Shown here: positions 40,982-52,437 of the stretch, piece by piece | How positions within the stretch are numbered: the first letter of the stretch is position 1 | Layout of the letters: each line of letters begins with the position of its first letter | Assembly: GCA_963727455.1 (NCBI GenBank) | Contig: CAVSGG010000008.1 | Span: 256,001-320,000, forward strand | Length of the DNA: 64,000 nt | Source of the DNA: Candidatus Krumholzibacteriota bacterium | GTDB lineage: Bacteria > Krumholzibacteriota > Krumholzibacteriia > JAJRXK01 | Reading direction: 5' to 3' | Translations under genes and position numbers: made by a program | The notes under the pieces: generated by a model | Told to the model about the DNA's origin: nothing | The model's input: the letters and a program-made list of their open reading frames with translations, nothing else | Databases searched by the model: none

Positions 40982-42172
40982 ATGAAGATTGCCATCCTGA
41001 CTCGCAACGCGCGCGGTTACTCCGTACGAAGATTGCGGCATGCGGCCGTGGAGCGAGGACACAGGGTCCGCGCCTACGACACCTTGAAGTTTGCGCTCCA
41101 CGTCGAATCCCGTGAGCCCGATCTCCTTTACAACCAGCGCGCGATCGAGAACTGTGACGTGGTGATTCCACGCATTGGCTCCTCGATCACTCCCTTCGGC
41201 ACCGCAGTCGTGCGGCAGTTCGAGCAAATGGGGGTCAGCTGTCTCAACACCTCGACCGCCATCAGCGTTTCCCGCGACAAGTTGCGTAGTCTTCAGGTAC
41301 TGAGCCGCCATGAGATCGGCATGCCGGAGTCGGCTTTCGTTCGCCGCAAGGAGGACGTACTGCCGGCCATTCGCGGCGTCGGAGGAGCGCCCGTGATCAT
41401 CAAGCTGCTCGAGGGTTCTCAGGGAATCGGGGTGATCCTGGCCGACAAAGAGCAGATCGCGGCGGCGATCATCGAGACCCTGCAGAGCGCGATGCAGAGC
41501 GTGCTCATTCAGAAGTTCGTATCCGAGAGCAAGGGAAAGGACATCCGCGCGCTCGTGGTGGGAGGACGCGTGGTGGCCGCAATGCGTCGCCGGGCAGCCG
41601 GCCAGGAGTTTCGCAGCAACGTGCATCGCGGAGGACGCACCGAGCCGGTGGAACTGGACGAAGAGTATCAACGAACCGCGGTGAAAGCGGCCCAGATCAT
41701 GGGCTTGCGCCTGGCCGGCGTGGACATCCTCGAGAGCGAAGAAGGTCCCCAGGTGATGGAGGTCAATTCCTCTCCTGGGCTCGAAGGAATTGAGAAGGCC
41801 ACCGGGGTGGATGTCGCGGGAGCGATCATCGAACACCTCGAGGAGCTTCTGCTCTTCCCGGAAATCGACCTACGGCAACGCCTCACCCTGAAGAGCGGAT
41901 ATGGCGTCGCGGAATTCCAGGTGAATCGGAATTCGAGCCTGTGCAATACGACCATCGCAGAGTCGGGACTGAGAGATCGCGATGTGCTCGTCCTGAGCGT
42001 ACAGAGGGCCGGTATCAGCTTTCCCGCGCCGCACGGCGGCCATGAGATTCGTCCCGGGGACACTCTGGTGTGCTACGGCAAGATCCTCACCCTGAAATCG
42101 CTCATCCCGGCAAGGAAGCCGCGGAGACGCAAAAAGAAACGGAATTCGAGTTCTGGTGGAGGGCGCGGATGA
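40982..42172 (+). CDS. rimK: RimK-family alpha-L-glutamate ligase (ATP-grasp) with a C-terminal RCK_C/TrkA-C domain
   Basis: IPRIG.SIT..G.AV.RQFE, SRDKLRS.Q.L, LEGSQG.GV, EFRSNVHRGG, EVNSSPGLEGIE; extension 'SSLCNTTIAESGLR..DVLVLSVQR...IRPGD.LVCYG'. Confidence 0.92.
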   Translation: MKIAILTRNARGYSVRRLRHAAVERGHRVRAYDTLKFALHVESREPDLLYNQRAIENCDVVIPRIGSSITPFGTAVVRQFEQMGVSCLNTSTAISVSRDKLRSLQVLSRHEIGMPESAFVRRKEDVLPAIRGVGGAPVIIKLLEGSQGIGVILADKEQIAAAIIETLQSAMQSVLIQKFVSESKGKDIRALVVGGRVVAAMRRRAAGQEFRSNVHRGGRTEPVELDEEYQRTAVKAAQIMGLRLAGVDILESEEGPQVMEVNSSPGLEGIEKATGVDVAGAIIEHLEELLLFPEIDLRQRLTLKSGYGVAEFQVNRNSSLCNTTIAESGLRDRDVLVLSVQRAGISFPAPHGGHEIRPGDTLVCYGKILTLKSLIPARKPRRRKKKRNSSSGGGRG

Positions 42173-43236
42173 AGAAGAGCACGCCCGCATTCCGCCTGGG
42201 AGGGATCAGGGTGCCACGTGGCGAATCGCGTGACATTCGTCTCGAGCTGAGCCGAAGCTACACCGGCGATGCGATCAGCCTACCGGTGCACGTGCTGCGG
42301 GGCAGAACAAAAGGACCGACCGTCTTCGTGACCGCAGCGATCCACGGCGACGAGATCAACGGCACGGGAATTCTGCACGAGATTCTCTTTGATACTCCCC
42401 TGAAGCTCATTGCTGGGACCTTGATCCTGGTCCCGGTCGTCAACGTCTTCGGTTTCGAGACGCAGGATCGCTACATGCCCGATCGTCGCGATCTCAATCG
42501 TTTCTTCCCGGGTGATCCTACCGGAAGTCTGACAAGACGCATCGCGCACACCCTCTTCTCGCAGATCGTCGCGCAGAGCAATTTCGGGATCGATCTGCAC
42601 ACTGCGGCCACCGGACGCACCAACTTTCCCAACGTACGAGGCGATCTGCGCGACAAGGAGGTCCGTCGTCTGGCGCGCTCCTTCGGTTGCGAACTCATGG
42701 TGCACGGCCGTGGCCCCGAGGGCTCTTTGCGCCGGGAAGCGGTCAGGGCGGGTTGTCCGACGATTCTCTTGGAGGCCGGTGAACCCTGCAAGATCGAGCG
42801 TGGAGTGCAGGAAACCGGGGTGCGGGGGATTCTGAACGTCCTCTCCGAGCTGCAGATGATCGACAGGAAACCGGTCCGCCCCCCCTATCAGGTCAAGATC
42901 GAACGCTCTGTATGGCTGCGAGCGGAAGCAGCGGGAATCCTGCGCTTCCACGTGAGTCCGGGCGAACTGATCGAAGCGGGCCAGGCCATCGCAACCAACG
43001 TGAGCGTGTTCGGCGAGACGCAAAACACCCTGCTCACACCTGTCGACGGAATTGTTCTGGGGATGACAACCCTTCCCGCGGTGAAGCCGGGCGAACCGGT
43101 ATGTCATTTGGCGATACCCTCGCGCTCGTTGAAGGGAGTGCGTCGGGCTCTGGAGCGTACCAGGGCCACCGAGTTCGAGACCGTCACACCGGGGCAACTC
43201 TCTTCGCGGTCGATTTTTGAGCCGCGCGAGGACTGA
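42169..43236 (+). CDS. Succinylglutamate desuccinylase/aspartoacylase (M14-like) family hydrolase
   Basis: AAIHGDEING, DRRDLNRFFPG, DLHT, LLEAGE, C-terminal biotinyl-lipoyl-like domain. Confidence 0.9.
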   Translation: MKKSTPAFRLGGIRVPRGESRDIRLELSRSYTGDAISLPVHVLRGRTKGPTVFVTAAIHGDEINGTGILHEILFDTPLKLIAGTLILVPVVNVFGFETQDRYMPDRRDLNRFFPGDPTGSLTRRIAHTLFSQIVAQSNFGIDLHTAATGRTNFPNVRGDLRDKEVRRLARSFGCELMVHGRGPEGSLRREAVRAGCPTILLEAGEPCKIERGVQETGVRGILNVLSELQMIDRKPVRPPYQVKIERSVWLRAEAAGILRFHVSPGELIEAGQAIATNVSVFGETQNTLLTPVDGIVLGMTTLPAVKPGEPVCHLAIPSRSLKGVRRALERTRATEFETVTPGQLSSRSIFEPRED

Positions 43237-46197: not shown

Positions 46198-46728
46198 TCA
46201 GACGAGTCGCTTCCAGTAGACCTCTTTCGCGTCACCGGGACCGTAGAATTCCGGGTAGCTGGCAAGGTGCTGAAAGCCGCAGGCGAGATAGAAGCGACGG
46301 GTGGGCTCATACTGCGGCCTCCCCGAGGTCTCGATGTAGATTTGCCGGCCATTTTTGCGCTTAATTTTCGCCTCGAGCTCCCGCAGCAGCCAGCGCCCGA
46401 TCCCCGAGGAGCGGTGCCCCTGGTCCACCGCGATCCAGTAGAGGTCGTAGCTTCCCTCGGTACAGGCGATCTCCCCGTAGCAGCAGTAGGCGCAAGTCAG
46501 GGGCTCTTCCGGCGAGGAGCCCGCGGATTCGACGAAGAGAAACTCATATCCGCTCGCCGCCCCCCGCCTGCGCCGTTCGCTCACCAGCTCTACCGCGACG
46601 GCGAGCTCCTGTGAGCTGAAAAAGCCGCTGGACCGCACGATCCTGGCTACCGTGTCCTCATCCTGCGGCCAGAGCCTGTCGCGAAGAAAGAGCCCGGTAG
46701 GGACGCCAGGCTCACGCTCTGCTTGCAT
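46198..46728 (-). CDS. GNAT family N-acetyltransferase
   Basis: YDLYWIAVD..HRSSGIGR.LL, IETSG...YEPTRRFY...GF. Confidence 0.88.
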   Translation of the reverse strand: MQAEREPGVPTGLFLRDRLWPQDEDTVARIVRSSGFFSSQELAVAVELVSERRRRGAASGYEFLFVESAGSSPEEPLTCAYCCYGEIACTEGSYDLYWIAVDQGHRSSGIGRWLLRELEAKIKRKNGRQIYIETSGRPQYEPTRRFYLACGFQHLASYPEFYGPGDAKEVYWKRLV

Positions 46729-48499
46729 CGTGTCCCTCTCCTCTAGCCTTGCTCGGCGAGTTCGACTCTTCCATCCCCTCCACGATCCCCTCGAAGAACG
46801 CGCGCGCGTTCGTGCCGAGATTGCGTGTCCGGTAGCCCCCCTCCTGCACCACGACGGTGCGCAGTCTGGCTGCACCGATCCGCCGTCCGTTCGCCCGAAA
46901 GTCTGCCGGGCTCAAGGACCAGGTCCCGGTGGGATCGCCCTTGGCCGTGTCCAAGCCAAGGGCTACCACCAGAAATTGCGGTGCAAATTCTTCGATCTTG
47001 CGCAGAGCCTTGCTCAGGACGGCGCCGTGGCGTTTTCCGTCAACTTTCTCGGGCAAGGGAAGATTCCAGTTGAAGCCTTCGCCCTGCTCCACCCCGTTCT
47101 CCTCGGCGAAACCGGAAAAGTAAGGATAGGCGAAGCTGGGATGACCGTGAACGGACACGGTCAGGACATCCGGACGATCATAGAAAATCGTCTGCTGACC
47201 GTTCCCGTGGTGATAATCGATGTCGAGGATTGCTACCCGCCCGTGGGCGCAAAGAAAATTCGCGGCAATCGCATTGTTGTTGAAGTAACAGAATCCGCCA
47301 AAGGCCGCGCGCTCCGCATGGTGACCCGGAGGGCGCACCAGGGCGTAGGCCAGCCGCTCGCCGTGCAGGACCGCTTCCGCCGCGGTCAGCGCGCAATCCA
47401 CGGCCGAGAGCGCGGCGACCAATGCGTTCGAGTTGAGCGGAGTAAAGGTGTCCATGCAATAGTATCCGGCCCGCACGGAGAGCTCCTTGGGAGCTCGCGC
47501 CTGGTTGCGCAGGGGAAAGACGTAGGGATAGACCGACTTCCCTTCGGGCAAACCCCGGCAGACTCTCTTGAAGAACTCGAAATAACTACGGTCGTGCACA
47601 GCCAGGATGTGTGATTCCGCAAAGTGCCGCGGTTTCACCTCACGAAACAGACCGCTCTGATCGAGGTCCTTTCGGATCGCCCGGATGCGTACCGGAGCCT
47701 CGACATATCCACGATCTTTGACGTGGTGAATCTCGTGACGGGCGTTCGCCACCAATACGATCGGAGCGGAGGCTGTCTTGCCCTGCGGGTTCTCGCGTGC
47801 TTTCGGCGCACGATAGCGTTTGGGTCTCAACTGCACGGGGTCGTCGACGAAGGAGGCCACGACTTCGTCCACGTAGCTCGACCCGAAGGCGTGACGATAG
47901 CGGTTTTGAAGGATCGCCCGGACGATCTTTCGCGTCGCGGCGCGGCGCAGGGGTTTGCCTGTCCCGAGGTCGTCGAAGACGAGGTAGGGCATTCCCTTCT
48001 GGTCCTCGCGCGGAGCCAGCTCGTATTTGGTATTGACGATGGGTCGAGCCCCATACCGCTCGTAGAAACGCAGGCGCGCCACGTTCTGCGCGTACTCTTC
48101 CTCGCTCGCGCATTCCTCGCGCTCGTCGGGAAGACACTCGAAGAAGACTCCCAGCGCGTCGAGGGAGCGCGCTTCTTCTCGAACTCGCTCGTACAGGGCT
48201 CCACCAACGCCGGAACCTCGCTTCTGTGGATCGGTCGCGATGTAGTCGAGGTAGACGAAGCGTTCGGCCCGGTCGTGGAGCACCATCGCGAAGCCCCGCA
48301 CCGCCCCACGCGCGTTGTCGGCAACGAAGAGATGGCTGCGGAATCGGAATTCGACGGGATCGTTCAGGCGCCGCGGCAAATCCGCGACTTCGCTTTCGCT
48401 GAGACCGGGAAAACGCTCTCGCAGGATCTCCTGCACACGCTGGATCTCCTGCCGATCGAAGGGCAGAGAATCGTCGAAGATGCGTCGAATGCGGAACAT
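46712..48499 (-). CDS. GNAT-like domain fused to a Zn-dependent HDAC / acetylpolyamine amidohydrolase
   Basis: N-terminal 'YLDYIATDPQKRGSGVGGALY...RLRFYERYG'; C-terminal RPPGHHA, GGFCYFNN, DIDYHHGNG, LGLDT.KGD, QEGGY. Confidence 0.9.
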   Translation of the reverse strand: MFRIRRIFDDSLPFDRQEIQRVQEILRERFPGLSESEVADLPRRLNDPVEFRFRSHLFVADNARGAVRGFAMVLHDRAERFVYLDYIATDPQKRGSGVGGALYERVREEARSLDALGVFFECLPDEREECASEEEYAQNVARLRFYERYGARPIVNTKYELAPREDQKGMPYLVFDDLGTGKPLRRAATRKIVRAILQNRYRHAFGSSYVDEVVASFVDDPVQLRPKRYRAPKARENPQGKTASAPIVLVANARHEIHHVKDRGYVEAPVRIRAIRKDLDQSGLFREVKPRHFAESHILAVHDRSYFEFFKRVCRGLPEGKSVYPYVFPLRNQARAPKELSVRAGYYCMDTFTPLNSNALVAALSAVDCALTAAEAVLHGERLAYALVRPPGHHAERAAFGGFCYFNNNAIAANFLCAHGRVAILDIDYHHGNGQQTIFYDRPDVLTVSVHGHPSFAYPYFSGFAEENGVEQGEGFNWNLPLPEKVDGKRHGAVLSKALRKIEEFAPQFLVVALGLDTAKGDPTGTWSLSPADFRANGRRIGAARLRTVVVQEGGYRTRNLGTNARAFFEGIVEGMEESNSPSKARGEGHDASRA

Positions 48500-48503
48500 G
48501 ACC

Positions 48504-49526
48504 TCATGCCCGGTTCAAGAGCAGCCCTTTCGGGTTCCTTCCCGCCCGTGCCGCGAGAAGAACTTGGGTGATGACCTCCGAGCGCGAGAGGCCAGCATGC
48601 TCGGCCGCGGCCATGAAGCCGGCATCAGCGGAGAGACACGGATTCGGATTCACTTCGAGGATCCACTCCTGGCCCCCGCTGTCCACACGAAAATCCACCC
48701 GAGCGTAGCCGCGCAATCCGAAGAGCCTCCAGCATGCGCGCGCCTCCTCGGCGAGGCGGTCCAGCAGATCCTGGTCGCCCGCTCCCTCGGCGAACTTACG
48801 TACGGTGTGCCGGTAGTCGAAGGAAGTCTCGTCCCACTTCGCGGCGTAGCCCACGAGCTTGCGCTTGCCCGCCGGATAGTCGACGAAGCACATCTCGGCG
48901 ATGGGAAGGACGTCGGGTTGCCCGCTCTCCCCTTCTAGCATTGCGAGATTGAACTCACGCCCCTCGACCCAAGCCTCGGCGAAGGCCTCGCCGCCCAGAC
49001 TCGAGCGGCGCTGAAGAATCTGCTCGTGGAGCTCCTGCGGTGAGGTGGCCAGGATGACCGAGGAATCGTCGAGTCCGAGTGAGGCATCCTCCCAGACGGA
49101 CTTGACGATGTACTCCGCGGGCCAGACCACTGGTCCCTCGATCTTTCCGCCCTCGCTCATCCAAGCGGGAGTCGGTAATCCACTGGCCTTGAGCAGACGC
49201 TTGGTCCACACCTTGTCGCTGCACAGCACGATGGCGCCGCTGGGGGAACCGGTGTATCCGACGTCCAGCCGGTCCAGAAGCGCGGGCACCAAATGGATGA
49301 GACGGCCTTCGCCGTCGAGCGACTCCACCAGGTTGAAGATGAGGTCACAGCCCTCATCTTGCAGCTTCCCTTCGAAGTCCTGCAGAGGAAGGCCAGCCCC
49401 CAAACTGGACACGCGGTGACCGAGCGCGCTCAGGATCGCCGCGATCTCCTCGACCTGCACCATTCCGTCGCGTTCATCCGGACGGCCGGTGAGGGCCCTC
49501 TGGTCGTGGGCCAGCACGATTTTCAC
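48504..49526 (-). CDS. D-Ala-D-Ala-ligase-like ATP-grasp amide ligase (copy 2)
   Basis: FNLVES, YTGS, DKVWTK, IVKS.WEDAS.G, EGREF, GYARVDFR, EVNPNPCL. Confidence 0.88.
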   Translation of the reverse strand: MKIVLAHDQRALTGRPDERDGMVQVEEIAAILSALGHRVSSLGAGLPLQDFEGKLQDEGCDLIFNLVESLDGEGRLIHLVPALLDRLDVGYTGSPSGAIVLCSDKVWTKRLLKASGLPTPAWMSEGGKIEGPVVWPAEYIVKSVWEDASLGLDDSSVILATSPQELHEQILQRRSSLGGEAFAEAWVEGREFNLAMLEGESGQPDVLPIAEMCFVDYPAGKRKLVGYAAKWDETSFDYRHTVRKFAEGAGDQDLLDRLAEEARACWRLFGLRGYARVDFRVDSGGQEWILEVNPNPCLSADAGFMAAAEHAGLSRSEVITQVLLAARAGRNPKGLLLNRA

Positions 49527-50533
49527 GACGCTACGCCCTCTTGCAGCGCGAAATTTCCCTCTGGGATCCGCTTCGCGCCGGAGGCCACGATCCCCGCGAT
49601 CAGATCCCGGTAAGACATGCCCACTGCGGTACAGGTCATCGGCAGATCCGAATGAGAGGGGTGCATCCCGGGAAGCGGATTTACTTCCATTACATAAAGC
49701 TGCCCGTTCTCGTCTTCGCGAAAATCCACACGACCCGCGTCCCTACAGCCCAGGGTGCGCCAGGTGGCGAGCGCCAGCTCCGCACAGCGAGCGGCCGCTG
49801 CGCGGTCGGTCAGAAAGTAATGGACCAAGCTCTCGCATTCCTCCTTGTTTCGATAGGTATAGGCATTGGCATCGGCCATCTCGTCATAGCCCAGTTCCAG
49901 CGTCCCGATCACCACAGCCTCCTCCCCCGTGCCGAGGATGCTCGTGGTGAACTCCCTGCCTGCGAGGTAGGGTTCGACGAGCGCAGGTTGTCGATACTCC
50001 TTCAGGATGGACAGGCATCGCCGCTCCAACTCGAGGGGCTCGTCGATCTTCGAGTTTGCGTCGATTCCCTTGGCGGTTCCCTCGGCCACCGGCTTCACGA
50101 ACACGGGGAAGGGGAAATCCACTCGCGCGAGGTCCCGCGCGGACTCCACGACGACGAAATCCGTGGTCGCGATGCCCGCGCTGCGCAGCACGTGCTTCGT
50201 CATCCCCTTGTGCAGAGTCAAAGCGCACACCAGGGGATCGGAGAAGGTGTAGGCGATTCCGTAGGCCTCCAGCAGCGCGGGCACCTGGGATTCCCGACCC
50301 ACGCCCCAGAGTCCCTCACTGATGTTGAAGACCAGATCCCAACGGTCGCCGTCTGCGAGCCGCCGGGTAAGAGCTTGCACGTGTCCGATGCGATCCACCT
50401 CGTGACCGAGCGCCACGAGCTCCTGCTCGATGAAATCGATGGTCCCTTCGCGATCGAACTCCGCTGTTTCGCTCTCGCTATAACCCATCGCGAGATACTC
50501 CTCGCGCAGGTCGAAGGTCATGCCAATCTTCAT
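49523..50533 (-). CDS. D-Ala-D-Ala-ligase-like ATP-grasp amide ligase (copy 1)
   Basis: FNISEG..G.GRESQVPALLE, FVKPVAEGT.KGI, LAGREFT, RDAGRVDFR, EVNPLPG; ATG 50533 overlaps the kamA stop. Confidence 0.88.
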   Translation of the reverse strand: MKIGMTFDLREEYLAMGYSESETAEFDREGTIDFIEQELVALGHEVDRIGHVQALTRRLADGDRWDLVFNISEGLWGVGRESQVPALLEAYGIAYTFSDPLVCALTLHKGMTKHVLRSAGIATTDFVVVESARDLARVDFPFPVFVKPVAEGTAKGIDANSKIDEPLELERRCLSILKEYRQPALVEPYLAGREFTTSILGTGEEAVVIGTLELGYDEMADANAYTYRNKEECESLVHYFLTDRAAAARCAELALATWRTLGCRDAGRVDFREDENGQLYVMEVNPLPGMHPSHSDLPMTCTAVGMSYRDLIAGIVASGAKRIPEGNFALQEGVAS

Positions 50534-51879
50534 GAGGCCTCCTGCTTCCGCCCGCGACCTCCGCGGTTCGGACTGGTCACGGGGTCGGGATAGCGGTAGA
50601 TGTTCCCCTCGAAATTCCTGAGCAGAACGTCGTTTCCATCCCGGCCCACCACCGATTGCGAGAGCAATGGGATTTTCCCTCCCCCACCAGGGGCATCGAC
50701 CACGTAGGTGGGGACAGCGTAGCCTGTGGTGTGCCCGCGCAGGCCATCGATGATCTCCAAGCCCTTCTCGATGGGAGTGCGCAGATGACTCGATCCGGAG
50801 ATGGGATCGCACTGATAGATGTAGTACGGCCGGACTCGCGCGCGTAGCTCGGCGTGCTTCAGGGCTCTCATCGTCTCCACGTCGTCGTTCACCCCACGCG
50901 TGAGCACGGTCTGGCTCCCCACCGGAATCCCCGCGTCGGCCAGACGCTCGCAAGCCTGCACCACCTCCGGGGTGAACTCAACCGGGTGCATGGTGTGAAC
51001 GCTCAGCCAGAAGGGGTGGTGGCGCTTGAGCATGGCGACCAGTTCCGGGGTAATTCGCTGCGGAAGAACCAGCGGGATCTTGGTGCCGATGCGCAGAAAC
51101 TCCACGTGCTTGATGGCTCTCAGGCGGGAGAGAAGCCAATCCAGCCTCTCGTCGGTCATGGTGAGCGGGTCACCTCCTGAGATCAGAACGTCCCTGATCT
51201 CCGGGTGCTGGGCGATGTAGTTGATCGCGACCTCGTACTGCGCGTACGAAGCGTGGAATTCGGTAGAGTGCCCCACCATGCGCGCCCGCGTGCAATAGCG
51301 GCAGTAGGTCGCGCAGAAGTTGGTCACCAGGAACAGGACGCGATCGGGGTAGCGGTGGATCAGACCAGGGACCACCGCATCCGTTTCCTCGCCAAGAGGA
51401 TCGTCCGCTTCTCCCGGGGTACGCAGAAGCTCGCCCCGCACCGGAATCATCGTCCTCCGGATGGGGTCCTTGGCGTTCTGTGCATCCATGAGAGAAGCGT
51501 AGTACGGGGTGATGCCCAGAGGCAGTCGTCCGCCGATGCGCTCGATGGTGGCGCGCTCACTGCGGCTGAGGGTGAAGATGCGCTCGAGCTGGGCGAGATT
51601 GCGGATCCTCGAGTGCAGCTGCCAACGCCAGCTGTTCCAATCCTCCAGACTGGCCTCAGGGAAGTACAGACGGCGGAACTCGTCGCTCCGCTCGCTGACA
51701 GAGTACAACGCCCCAGTCTCGGACACGAGAAGGTCCGAGGCGGCGGGATCGCAGTGTTGTGGTTGGGAGAGGTGATCGGGCGCCGGCTCAGCCTCAGCGG
51801 CTTGCCGGTTCCGGTGAGCCAAGGGGGATAAACCAGGCGCCGGAGGTTCCGAGTCGAGACTCGGACTGATCTTGTTCAT
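50530..51879 (-). CDS. kamA: KamA family radical SAM enzyme, lysine 2,3-aminomutase type
   Basis: WNSWRWQ, TPYY, HRYPDRVLFL, CATYCRYC, SGGDPL, YIYQCD, VVDAPGGGGK (PLP Lys). Confidence 0.92.
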   Translation of the reverse strand: MNKISPSLDSEPPAPGLSPLAHRNRQAAEAEPAPDHLSQPQHCDPAASDLLVSETGALYSVSERSDEFRRLYFPEASLEDWNSWRWQLHSRIRNLAQLERIFTLSRSERATIERIGGRLPLGITPYYASLMDAQNAKDPIRRTMIPVRGELLRTPGEADDPLGEETDAVVPGLIHRYPDRVLFLVTNFCATYCRYCTRARMVGHSTEFHASYAQYEVAINYIAQHPEIRDVLISGGDPLTMTDERLDWLLSRLRAIKHVEFLRIGTKIPLVLPQRITPELVAMLKRHHPFWLSVHTMHPVEFTPEVVQACERLADAGIPVGSQTVLTRGVNDDVETMRALKHAELRARVRPYYIYQCDPISGSSHLRTPIEKGLEIIDGLRGHTTGYAVPTYVVDAPGGGGKIPLLSQSVVGRDGNDVLLRNFEGNIYRYPDPVTSPNRGGRGRKQEAS

Positions 51880-52071
51880 TAACGTCCTTTACCCACCAGG
51901 TGGGCGGCTGGAGCATGAGCCCGTTATACAAAACGCCCCCCCATGGACACGACGGGAGAGCGAGGATCACGAGACTGGGTCCAACAGCACAATAAAGAGG
52001 TCTTTTTTGGGCGAACGTCAAGGCCCAGTGTGGCTTTTGGAACAACTTTTTTCGGAGCCCGAGACCGCGCC

Positions 52072-52437
52072 TCAGTCAAGGCTGTCCGACTTGGCCTCCG
52101 CAGCCTGAGCGCCAAGACGGCGGATCTGTACCACGACCGAGTCCAGCTCGGTGTCGGTGATTCCGGGAATCCCCTGCATGCGGCCCTTGCCGTAGCGGGC
52201 GATACGACGGATCCGCTCATCGCTGTTGTAGCGTTGGAAGACGGGATCCCGCAGGTCGATGTCCTCCTTGGCCATCTTGCTCGCGGTGGTGGATGAGCCA
52301 TCGATCTCGTGGCAGCGAGCGCAGCGGTAGGCGTAGACTCCGGCCGGGCTTGGATCCTCCGGCTTCCGGGCGCACGCCGGCAAGAACAGCAGAAGAAGCA
52401 ATGAAGTCAGCAGGGTTCCCGTGCGAAGCGCTCTCAT
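52072..52437 (-). CDS. Monoheme cytochrome c lipoprotein
   Basis: Lipobox LPAC; CARCH; distal Met in GKGRM. Confidence 0.82.
   Translation of the reverse strand: MRALRTGTLLTSLLLLLFLPACARKPEDPSPAGVYAYRCARCHEIDGSSTTASKMAKEDIDLRDPVFQRYNSDERIRRIARYGKGRMQGIPGITDTELDSVVVQIRRLGAQAAEAKSDSLD

Follow-up and report, generated by a model that had tools for sequence, protein, structure and literature searches.

To our knowledge, β-lysine is met in only a few biological settings, namely lysine fermentation, the modification of EF-P, one osmolyte and some antibiotics. The stretch of DNA analysed here, referred to as the window, is 64,000 nucleotides (nt) long and comes from a genome bin of the phylum Krumholzibacteriota (contig C8:256001-320000); coordinates are those of the window unless a contig or locus is named. 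It carries a cluster of five genes in which an aminomutase of the KamA family is followed by two ATP-grasp ligases, a GNAT-deacetylase fusion protein and a small GNAT protein. The enzyme families are all known, and what appears to be new is their combination and its product. Judging from the sequences, we give roughly equal weight for and against the proposal that the operon would be a self-contained pathway to a small, cytoplasmic product, namely an N-acetylated β-lysine di- or tripeptide or a β-lysyl amide. The genes, with protein lengths in amino acids (aa) and domain content, are as follows, where Ddl denotes D-alanine--D-alanine ligase and PLP pyridoxal phosphate.

51879..50530, minus strand: kamA, radical-SAM/PLP enzyme of the lysine 2,3-aminomutase family (449 aa, ATG start; LAM_C and Radical_SAM)
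50533..49523, minus strand: ligase 1, ATP-grasp ligase, Ddl-like but not Ddl (336 aa; Dala_Dala_lig_C, 102 bits)
49526..48504, minus strand: ligase 2, ATP-grasp ligase, the tightest kamA-linked partner (340 aa; Dala_Dala_lig_C, 55 bits)
48499..46712, minus strand: GNAT-deacetylase (GNAT-HDAC), accessory (595 aa; GNAT, then Hist_deacetyl, 252 bits)
46728..46198, minus strand: small GNAT acetyltransferase-fold protein (176 aa, ATG start; Acetyltransf_7 and Acetyltransf_1)

Several described systems resemble parts of this cluster. In the AblAB system a lysine 2,3-aminomutase is likewise followed by a GNAT in one operon, and the cluster resembles an enlarged form of that pathway; AblA is the best NCBIfam model for the KamA described here. 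The KamA score is nevertheless under the cut-off for AblA, neither GNAT matches the AblB model TIGR03827 at E ≤0.01, and the cluster adds two ATP-grasp ligases and an optional deacetylase. The Ngg/AsnO pathway uses a GNAT and an ATP-grasp peptide ligase, fused in Ngg, to make N-acetylglutaminylglutamine amide, an N-acetylated dipeptide solute. Ligase 2 and the small GNAT are similarly fused in some organisms, but in the order ligase then GNAT; the cluster ligases belong to a Ddl-like branch, no amidotransferase is present, and a β-amino acid is supplied by the cluster's own aminomutase.

In the PylB/PylC system a radical-SAM rearrangement of lysine, catalysed by a carbon-skeleton mutase, is followed by ATP-grasp ligation to another amine, which is the order of events proposed also for the cluster. 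PylB is however not an aminomutase of the KamA type, the cluster has no PylD-like gene, and the structures related to the ligases at E ≤1e-5 do not include PylC. With the Ddl and Van ligases, the two cluster ligases share the ATP-grasp branch, the nearest solved structures and the catalytic R/D/E/N residues, but they score far under the family cut-offs, do not have the N-terminal motif and, in the case of ligase 1, have acidic residues at the positions of Y216 and L282. The deacetylase domain matches structures of acetylpolyamine amidohydrolases over nearly its whole length (E 2e-69 to 1e-59), but it is fused to an N-terminal GNAT, sometimes to a C-terminal GNAT as well, and is found in the context of β-lysine rather than of polyamines. 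The cluster is judged to be a member of none of the AblAB, Ddl, PylB/PylC and Ngg systems.

An initial annotation of this DNA had noted that the usual partners of lysine aminomutases are missing and that no product has been characterised for such a gene set, and both statements have held up. In the bin, which is 88.9% complete and 6.7% contaminated, there is no match to AblB or to BKACE/Kce, and EpmA (GenX) has none above its cut-off, the best candidate reaching 245 against 287 bits in a 535-aa open frame. KamD (PF09043) also had no match in the bin, a result that carries no weight since the search control matched no named genome. Neither the gene set nor its product is described in the full-text literature that was searched; the amidoligase survey of Iyer et al. 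(2009), which lies outside that search, may mention the neighbourhood.

Organisation and conservation of the cluster

The compact layout reported in the initial annotation was confirmed, both in the minus-strand sequence and in the list of open reading frames (ORFs). The kamA and ligase 1 genes meet at an ATGA junction, where the TGA at 50532-50530 overlaps the ATG at 50533-50531, and the two ligase genes meet at a GTGA junction, where the TGA at 49525-49523 overlaps the GTG at 49526-49524. A gap of 4 nt (48503-48500) separates ligase 2 from the GNAT-deacetylase, and the latter overlaps the small GNAT by 17 nt. The longest ORF for the small GNAT begins with a GTG at 46875, but homologues in two related loci (L003 and L010) align from residue 1 of the form beginning with ATG. 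The domain assignments of all five proteins were borne out by Pfam and NCBIfam.

Ligase 2 was taken as the anchor for a wider survey. Of 8000 candidates scored, 5198 proteins matched it at E ≤1e-10, a number that probably includes true Ddl. An alignment of 23 ligase 2 sequences was then scanned against one genome per prokaryote species, which gave at least 596 pattern matches, and at least 592 of these (species-level genomes) were confirmed as relatives. The best 80 of the at least 592 relatives, 42-73% identical to the anchor, were taken with 10-kb flanks as the locus set. The five proteins of the window served as tblastn queries for gene calling in these loci (E ≤1e-6, at least 50 bits), and each interval was assigned to its best query. 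Presence was scored where there was room for a neighbouring gene, meaning a flank of at least 2600 nt, as is the case upstream of the anchor in 66 loci, downstream in 63, and on both sides in 55.

Upstream of ligase 2, kamA is present in 62/66 loci and ligase 1 in 59/66. Downstream, the small GNAT is present in 55/63 loci and the GNAT-deacetylase in 21/63, leaving 42/63 without it. Of the 55 two-sided loci, 24 hold kamA, ligase 1 and a GNAT besides ligase 2, and 18 have all five genes. Five have kamA and both ligases with no GNAT nearby, four have kamA and a GNAT without ligase 1 (three Spirochaete bins and one unclassified bacterium, with the arrangement kamA, ligase 2, GNAT), and the remaining four have other combinations. 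The genes are on one strand throughout and their order is almost always kept, although in one Bacteroidales bin (L073) the GNAT-deacetylase has moved to a position directly behind kamA. Most of the cluster genes are 45-60% identical across the related loci.

The linkage of the cluster genes is not due to chance. Because the GNAT-deacetylase is optional, and because ligase 1 is missing from the loci of Spirochaete type, the conserved core is kamA plus ligase 2, usually accompanied by ligase 1 and the small GNAT. The GNAT-deacetylase is an accessory gene that lies outside this core, and since it is found in only 21 of the 63 loci, reversible acetylation would be an optional rather than a core step. 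The initial annotation was therefore right to expect that the gene set recurs in other genomes, while its picture of a ligase pair coupled to reversible acetylation has to be modified: the pair is retained in most loci but not in those of Spirochaete type, and the deacetylase only in a minority.

By their record titles, the carriers fall under about ten phylum-level labels. These are Krumholzibacteriota, Planctomycetota, Thermodesulfobacteriota/Desulfobacterota (including Syntrophales), Fibrobacterota, Acidobacteriota, Spirochaetota, Verrucomicrobiota (including Kiritimatiellia), Bacteroidota, Neomarinimicrobiota and, with a single locus, Pseudomonadota. Bins of Desulfosarcina, Desulfococcus, Syntrophus and Fibrobacter are among the relatives that carry a genus name.

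No further conserved neighbour emerged when the ORFs of the 80 loci and of the window, 1123 in total, were clustered. One ORF cluster extends over 32 loci, but it has no Pfam match and probably consists of antisense shadow ORFs; the largest additional family of real neighbours is a response regulator with a GGDEF domain, in 10 loci. Genes for an exporter, a precursor peptide or a carrier protein do not recur around the cluster in the 80 loci, which agrees with the earlier view that neither an exporter nor a precursor peptide is part of it.

Two further features of individual loci may be recorded here. In 4 of the 80 loci, kamA and ligase 1 are separated by a small gene for a CxxCxxCC-domain protein (putatively zinc- or iron-chelating), for example at 8504-9025 of L028. 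At 8835-9931 of L063, from a Spirochaetota bin, kamA is found as three adjacent pieces corresponding to residues 76-225, 227-251 and 252-443, a pattern that points to frameshifts or to errors of assembly there.

The encoded proteins

The KamA protein is recognised by the KamA family model TIGR00238 with 350 bits, above its cut-off of 199. Its best NCBIfam equivalog model is that of AblA (TIGR03820, 472 bits), which is under the cut-off of 525. The models for the glutamate aminomutase (425 bits, cut-off 650) and the arginine aminomutase (396 bits, cut-off 600) fall short by more than AblA does, and the EpmB equivalog gives 247 bits against a cut-off of 369. The alignment with the clostridial structure 2A5H (E 4e-129) is poor in gaps and extends over residues 72-435. 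In this alignment the YQCD and VVDAP motifs of KamA fall on D293 and D330 of 2A5H, which we take to be the residues that hold the lysine side-chain (ε) amine and that are replaced in glutamate 2,3-aminomutase. GGGGK aligns with the PLP lysine K337, and CATYCRYC with the CxxxCxxC cluster motif. The equivalents of D293, D330 and K337 and the three cluster cysteines are invariant in 62/62 KamA proteins (61 from related loci, and that of the window). Because this lysine-type aspartate pair, K337 and the cysteines are all invariant, the likely substrate of KamA is lysine, or a close basic analogue. The initial annotation had picked out the same aspartate pair and preferred lysine to glutamate on the strength of it; the alignment, the invariance of the pair and the ranking of AblA as best NCBIfam model all support this preference.

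Both ligases go under the name D-alanine--D-alanine ligase in public annotations. The best of the Ddl models, NF002378, has a cut-off of 243 bits and gives 159 bits for ligase 1 and 96.5 bits for ligase 2, and the remaining Ddl and Van models score both proteins lower. Their Pfam content is confined to the Ddl C-terminal ATP-grasp domain, and the solved structures closest to both are Ddl/Van ligases (E 1e-28 to 1e-22). Aligned with E. coli DdlB, ligase 1 keeps the residues that correspond to R255, D257, E270 and N272. The two ligases are 31% identical to each other; the catalytic R/D/E/N positions are aligned between them, and are invariant in 25 ligase 1 and 23 ligase 2 sequences.

The differences from Ddl lie elsewhere. 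The GGxSxE motif, which presumably binds the first D-Ala in Ddl, was not seen by eye in the N-terminus of either ligase, whereas a separate Ddl on contig C7 of the bin has the usual N-terminal motif. In ligase 1, as read by eye, the position of DdlB Y216 is a Glu and that of L282 an invariant Asp. There are many invariant acidic residues in both ligase families, which would suit a cationic substrate. By these comparisons both ligases retain intact ATP-grasp catalytic residues and are judged not to be Ddl.

Other ATP-grasp genes were noted in the bin. At 4438-6572 of L087 (C9:474437-476571), on the minus strand, there is a third Ddl-like paralogue, 28% identical to ligase 2. The first 4 nt of its gene are shared with the end of another, which matches Peptidase_Mx (putative zinc metallopeptidase) weakly, and the two represent a further, unassigned ligase system. 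On C7, from about position 906, the frame of the true Ddl, extended to the next stop in a script translation, continues into sequence resembling cysteinyl-tRNA synthetase; genuine read-through, a gene fusion and an artefact of assembly are all conceivable causes. On the plus strand of the window at 40982-43236, 3 kb from the operon, a fusion of a RimK-type ATP-grasp ligase with TrkA_C overlaps the start of a gene of the succinylglutamate desuccinylase/aspartoacylase family, seemingly a second pairing of a ligase with a hydrolase that has no relation to the operon.

The C-terminal part of the GNAT-deacetylase matches PF00850 with 252 bits, over positions 2-296 of the 298 in the model. Its closest solved relatives are acetylpolyamine amidohydrolases (9gkz, 2e-69; 6phr, 3e-66; 3q9b, 1e-59), with histone-deacetylase-like amidohydrolases far behind at 5e-35. 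Chains of HDAC6 also score high against this domain; these are two-domain chains, each of them matched in two stretches. The translation contains GHHA, DxDxHHGNG, GLD and EGGY, which we take to be the usual metal-binding and catalytic motifs of the HDAC family. The deacetylase domain is accordingly predicted to be intact and of the small-molecule, acetylpolyamine amidohydrolase type, while the gene context suggests that its substrate would be an acetylated β-lysine derivative and not an acetylpolyamine.

An acetyl-CoA loop is visible in one or two GNAT domains. The GNAT domain of the GNAT-deacetylase has a match to the streptothricin acetyltransferase model at E 0.0097, with 16 bits against a cut-off of 360. 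The closest solved relative of the small GNAT is 2r7h (1.4e-35), a structural-genomics entry labelled 'putative D-alanine N-acetyltransferase'. Fusions are informative here. In one related protein of 548 aa (P0031), residues 1-324 correspond to ligase 2 with 53% identity and residues 380-534 to the small GNAT with 51%, while the GNAT domain of the GNAT-deacetylase is not represented. Many of the best 120 relatives of the GNAT-deacetylase are 750-aa forms with an extra C-terminal GNAT, and in one of these (P0224) the small GNAT is matched by residues 592-750 with 43% identity. The small GNAT is in this way physically tied in nature to both ligase 2 and the GNAT-deacetylase.

The host bin and the region upstream of kamA

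A second complete copy of the cluster is present on contig C9 of the bin, with 84-93% protein identity. It might be taken for a paralogue, but this was rejected: C9:12-228961 is collinear with C8:260690-498684 over about 230 kb, at about 85% nucleotide identity (roughly 82-88%), and the copy is the orthologue of a co-binned relative. The collinearity therefore means that the bin mixes two related populations, and that apparent duplications, the second cluster included, are orthologues. Comparison of the C8 and C9 copies gave ratios of nonsynonymous to synonymous substitution rates (dN/dS) that are lowest in the GNAT-deacetylase (0.077) and kamA (0.079), followed by ligase 1 (0.105), ligase 2 (0.124) and the small GNAT (0.169), and all five genes are under purifying selection (0.08-0.17 between the two copies).

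The nearest named record with the cluster is another Krumholzibacteriota bin (L003). In a survey of 201 genomes of the phylum, with ligase 2 sought at E ≤1e-60, it was found in 56 of the 201, in 34 of the 125 good-quality genomes, and in 17 of 80 genera. Some genera have it in every member (8/8 and 15/15), and the genus of this bin in 2/5, the bin itself counted. Given this patchiness, both in the phylum and within its own genus, the cluster is an accessory trait. Among the sequencing runs listed as carrying the DNA there is none of RNA; the DNA runs are labelled wetland, four of them at a share of at least 0.33, and others have small shares. PADLOC matched none of the five proteins, and the idea of a defence system was set aside.

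One other feature belongs to the operon:

51880..52071, minus strand: upstream region of 192 nt with a terminator-like hairpin, possible promoter or leader

This region is near-identical in the window, in the C9 copy and in L003, although the surrounding coding and flanking DNA has diverged. The terminator-like hairpin is at 51962-51934; a U-run comes after it, and it lies about 55 nt ahead of the kamA start codon. The element was found only in its own genus, both when nhmmer was run on the 80 loci and on the genome and when the DNA of the 201 phylum genomes was searched; the latter gave three matches, one of which, at 27 nt, is of chance size. A riboswitch was considered and dropped, since the region has no Rfam match at E ≤1, folds no better than its shuffles (z -0.5) and occurs in its own genus only. 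It could represent a leader or attenuator particular to this lineage. Between this region and the gene for pyruvate kinase, at 52072-52437 on the minus strand, there is a 121-aa ORF whose translation shows a lipoprotein-like LPAC signal and one CxxCH haem motif.

A proposed pathway and its alternatives

We hypothesise that the cluster works as follows. KamA would convert L-lysine to (3S)-β-lysine, a step that is well supported by its sequence. From the chemistry of its family, ligase 2 would then form an amide bond involving β-lysine by way of an acyl-phosphate and, in most lineages, ligase 1 would add a second amide bond. The co-substrates would have to be common metabolites of the cell, because no further gene of the neighbourhood is conserved. 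The small GNAT would N-acetylate one amine of the substrate or of the product, probably in close association with ligase 2, because the two are fused in some organisms. Where it is present, the GNAT-deacetylase could carry out a second acetylation and also, with the help of zinc, take an N-acetyl group off an aminoalkyl chain, and this could serve for deprotection, for recycling or for re-tuning the charge of the product. A small molecule that stays in the cytoplasm is favoured because there is no gene for an exporter, a carrier or a precursor.

Within this proposal, a role like that of a compatible solute, or another role in stress, is the leading suggestion as to function, but it is a guess and a doubtful one. 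The many carriers from anoxic habitats that are not saline, as far as record titles tell, weaken it, and they do not favour a role restricted to high salt.

Some observations count against the proposed pathway. Since five of the 55 two-sided loci have no GNAT nearby, acetylation may be dispensable. To combine an acetyltransferase with a deacetylase in a single polypeptide would seem futile, unless the two work at different positions. Many of the carriers are bins from peat, groundwater, lakes and wastewater (again from record titles only), and the patchy distribution within the phylum is in keeping with an accessory trait, without telling what that trait is.

It is rather unlikely that the ligases instead attach β-lysine to a protein or to a precursor of the cell envelope, with acetylation tuning the charge, which would amount to a new post-translational or envelope modification. 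Enzymes of the RimK and D-aspartate-ligase types do modify proteins and peptidoglycan precursors, EF-P provides the precedent as the only known protein modification with β-lysine, and the cluster has no gene to supply a second small molecule. However, no candidate target gene is conserved beside the cluster in the 80 loci, the deacetylase is closest to amidohydrolases that act on small acetylpolyamines and not to protein deacetylases, and patchiness within genera would be unusual for the modification of an envelope or a translation factor. The invariant acidic residues of both ligase families would equally be consistent with the cationic substrate of a polymerase, and ATP-grasp polymerases exist, for example cyanophycin synthetase and RimK, as do β-lysine oligomers, in the streptothricins. 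β-Lysine, alone or with another amino acid, might in that case be linked into oligomers, or into a nitrogen store comparable to cyanophycin, that acetylation caps or neutralises. This we consider unlikely: two distinct ligases, only 31% identical and side by side across phyla, fit two defined steps better, and no gene for a depolymerase or cyanophycinase-like enzyme recurs among the 80 loci. The streptothricins bear also on the suggestion of a secreted, bioactive cationic peptide, from which the cell protects itself by acetylation and which the deacetylase activates. Acetylation of a β-lysine amine is a known route of resistance to streptothricin, and secondary metabolism is distributed in a similarly patchy way. 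The match of the GNAT domain to streptothricin acetyltransferase is nevertheless very weak (E 0.0097) and, at 16 bits, far under the 360-bit cut-off, no exporter recurs in the 80 loci, and a small, uniform cluster shared at 45-60% identity by about ten phylum labels looks more like primary or stress metabolism, so that such a peptide is very unlikely to be the product.

In Bacillus subtilis, an operon of the kamA-yodP-yodQ type acetylates β-lysine and later deacetylates it. The aminomutase, acetyltransferase and deacetylase are common to the two systems, and the cluster might on this basis serve the breakdown or detoxification of lysine or β-lysine. A catabolic route has no place for two ligases that consume ATP, though, and the cluster has no genes for an aminotransferase, a CoA-transferase, BKACE/Kce or KamDE (BKACE being absent from the matches in the bin as a whole); with the deacetylase also missing from 42/63 loci, this explanation is highly improbable. 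Finally, the names given to the ligases in public annotations, and the label of 2r7h, might suggest ordinary D-Ala-D-Ala ligases that happen to be adjacent to unrelated housekeeping GNATs. This is barely credible in view of the Ddl scores, which at 159 and 96.5 bits lie far from the required 243, of N-terminal regions that, by eye, have no equivalent of the motif in the C7 Ddl, and of the linkage to kamA in 62/66 loci.

Returning to the proposed pathway to an acetylated β-lysine peptide or amide, its wider implications can be stated briefly. The compact and self-contained set of genes means that the product could be found directly, by expressing the four or five genes. Two branches of the ATP-grasp family that are now annotated as cell-wall ligases would gain a function and a corrected annotation, and the cluster would add a further setting to those in which β-lysine is known. 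The cluster is widespread, its anchor ligase being held by at least 592 species-level genomes, and the carriers are poorly studied anaerobes. It is tentatively possible that anaerobes of these ten or so phyla commonly make a class of cytoplasmic metabolite that has not been described before, an N-acetylated β-lysine di- or tripeptide or β-lysyl amide whose charge may be switched by acetylation and deacetylation, and which could act as a neutral, protective solute in one state and resemble a polyamine cation in the other.

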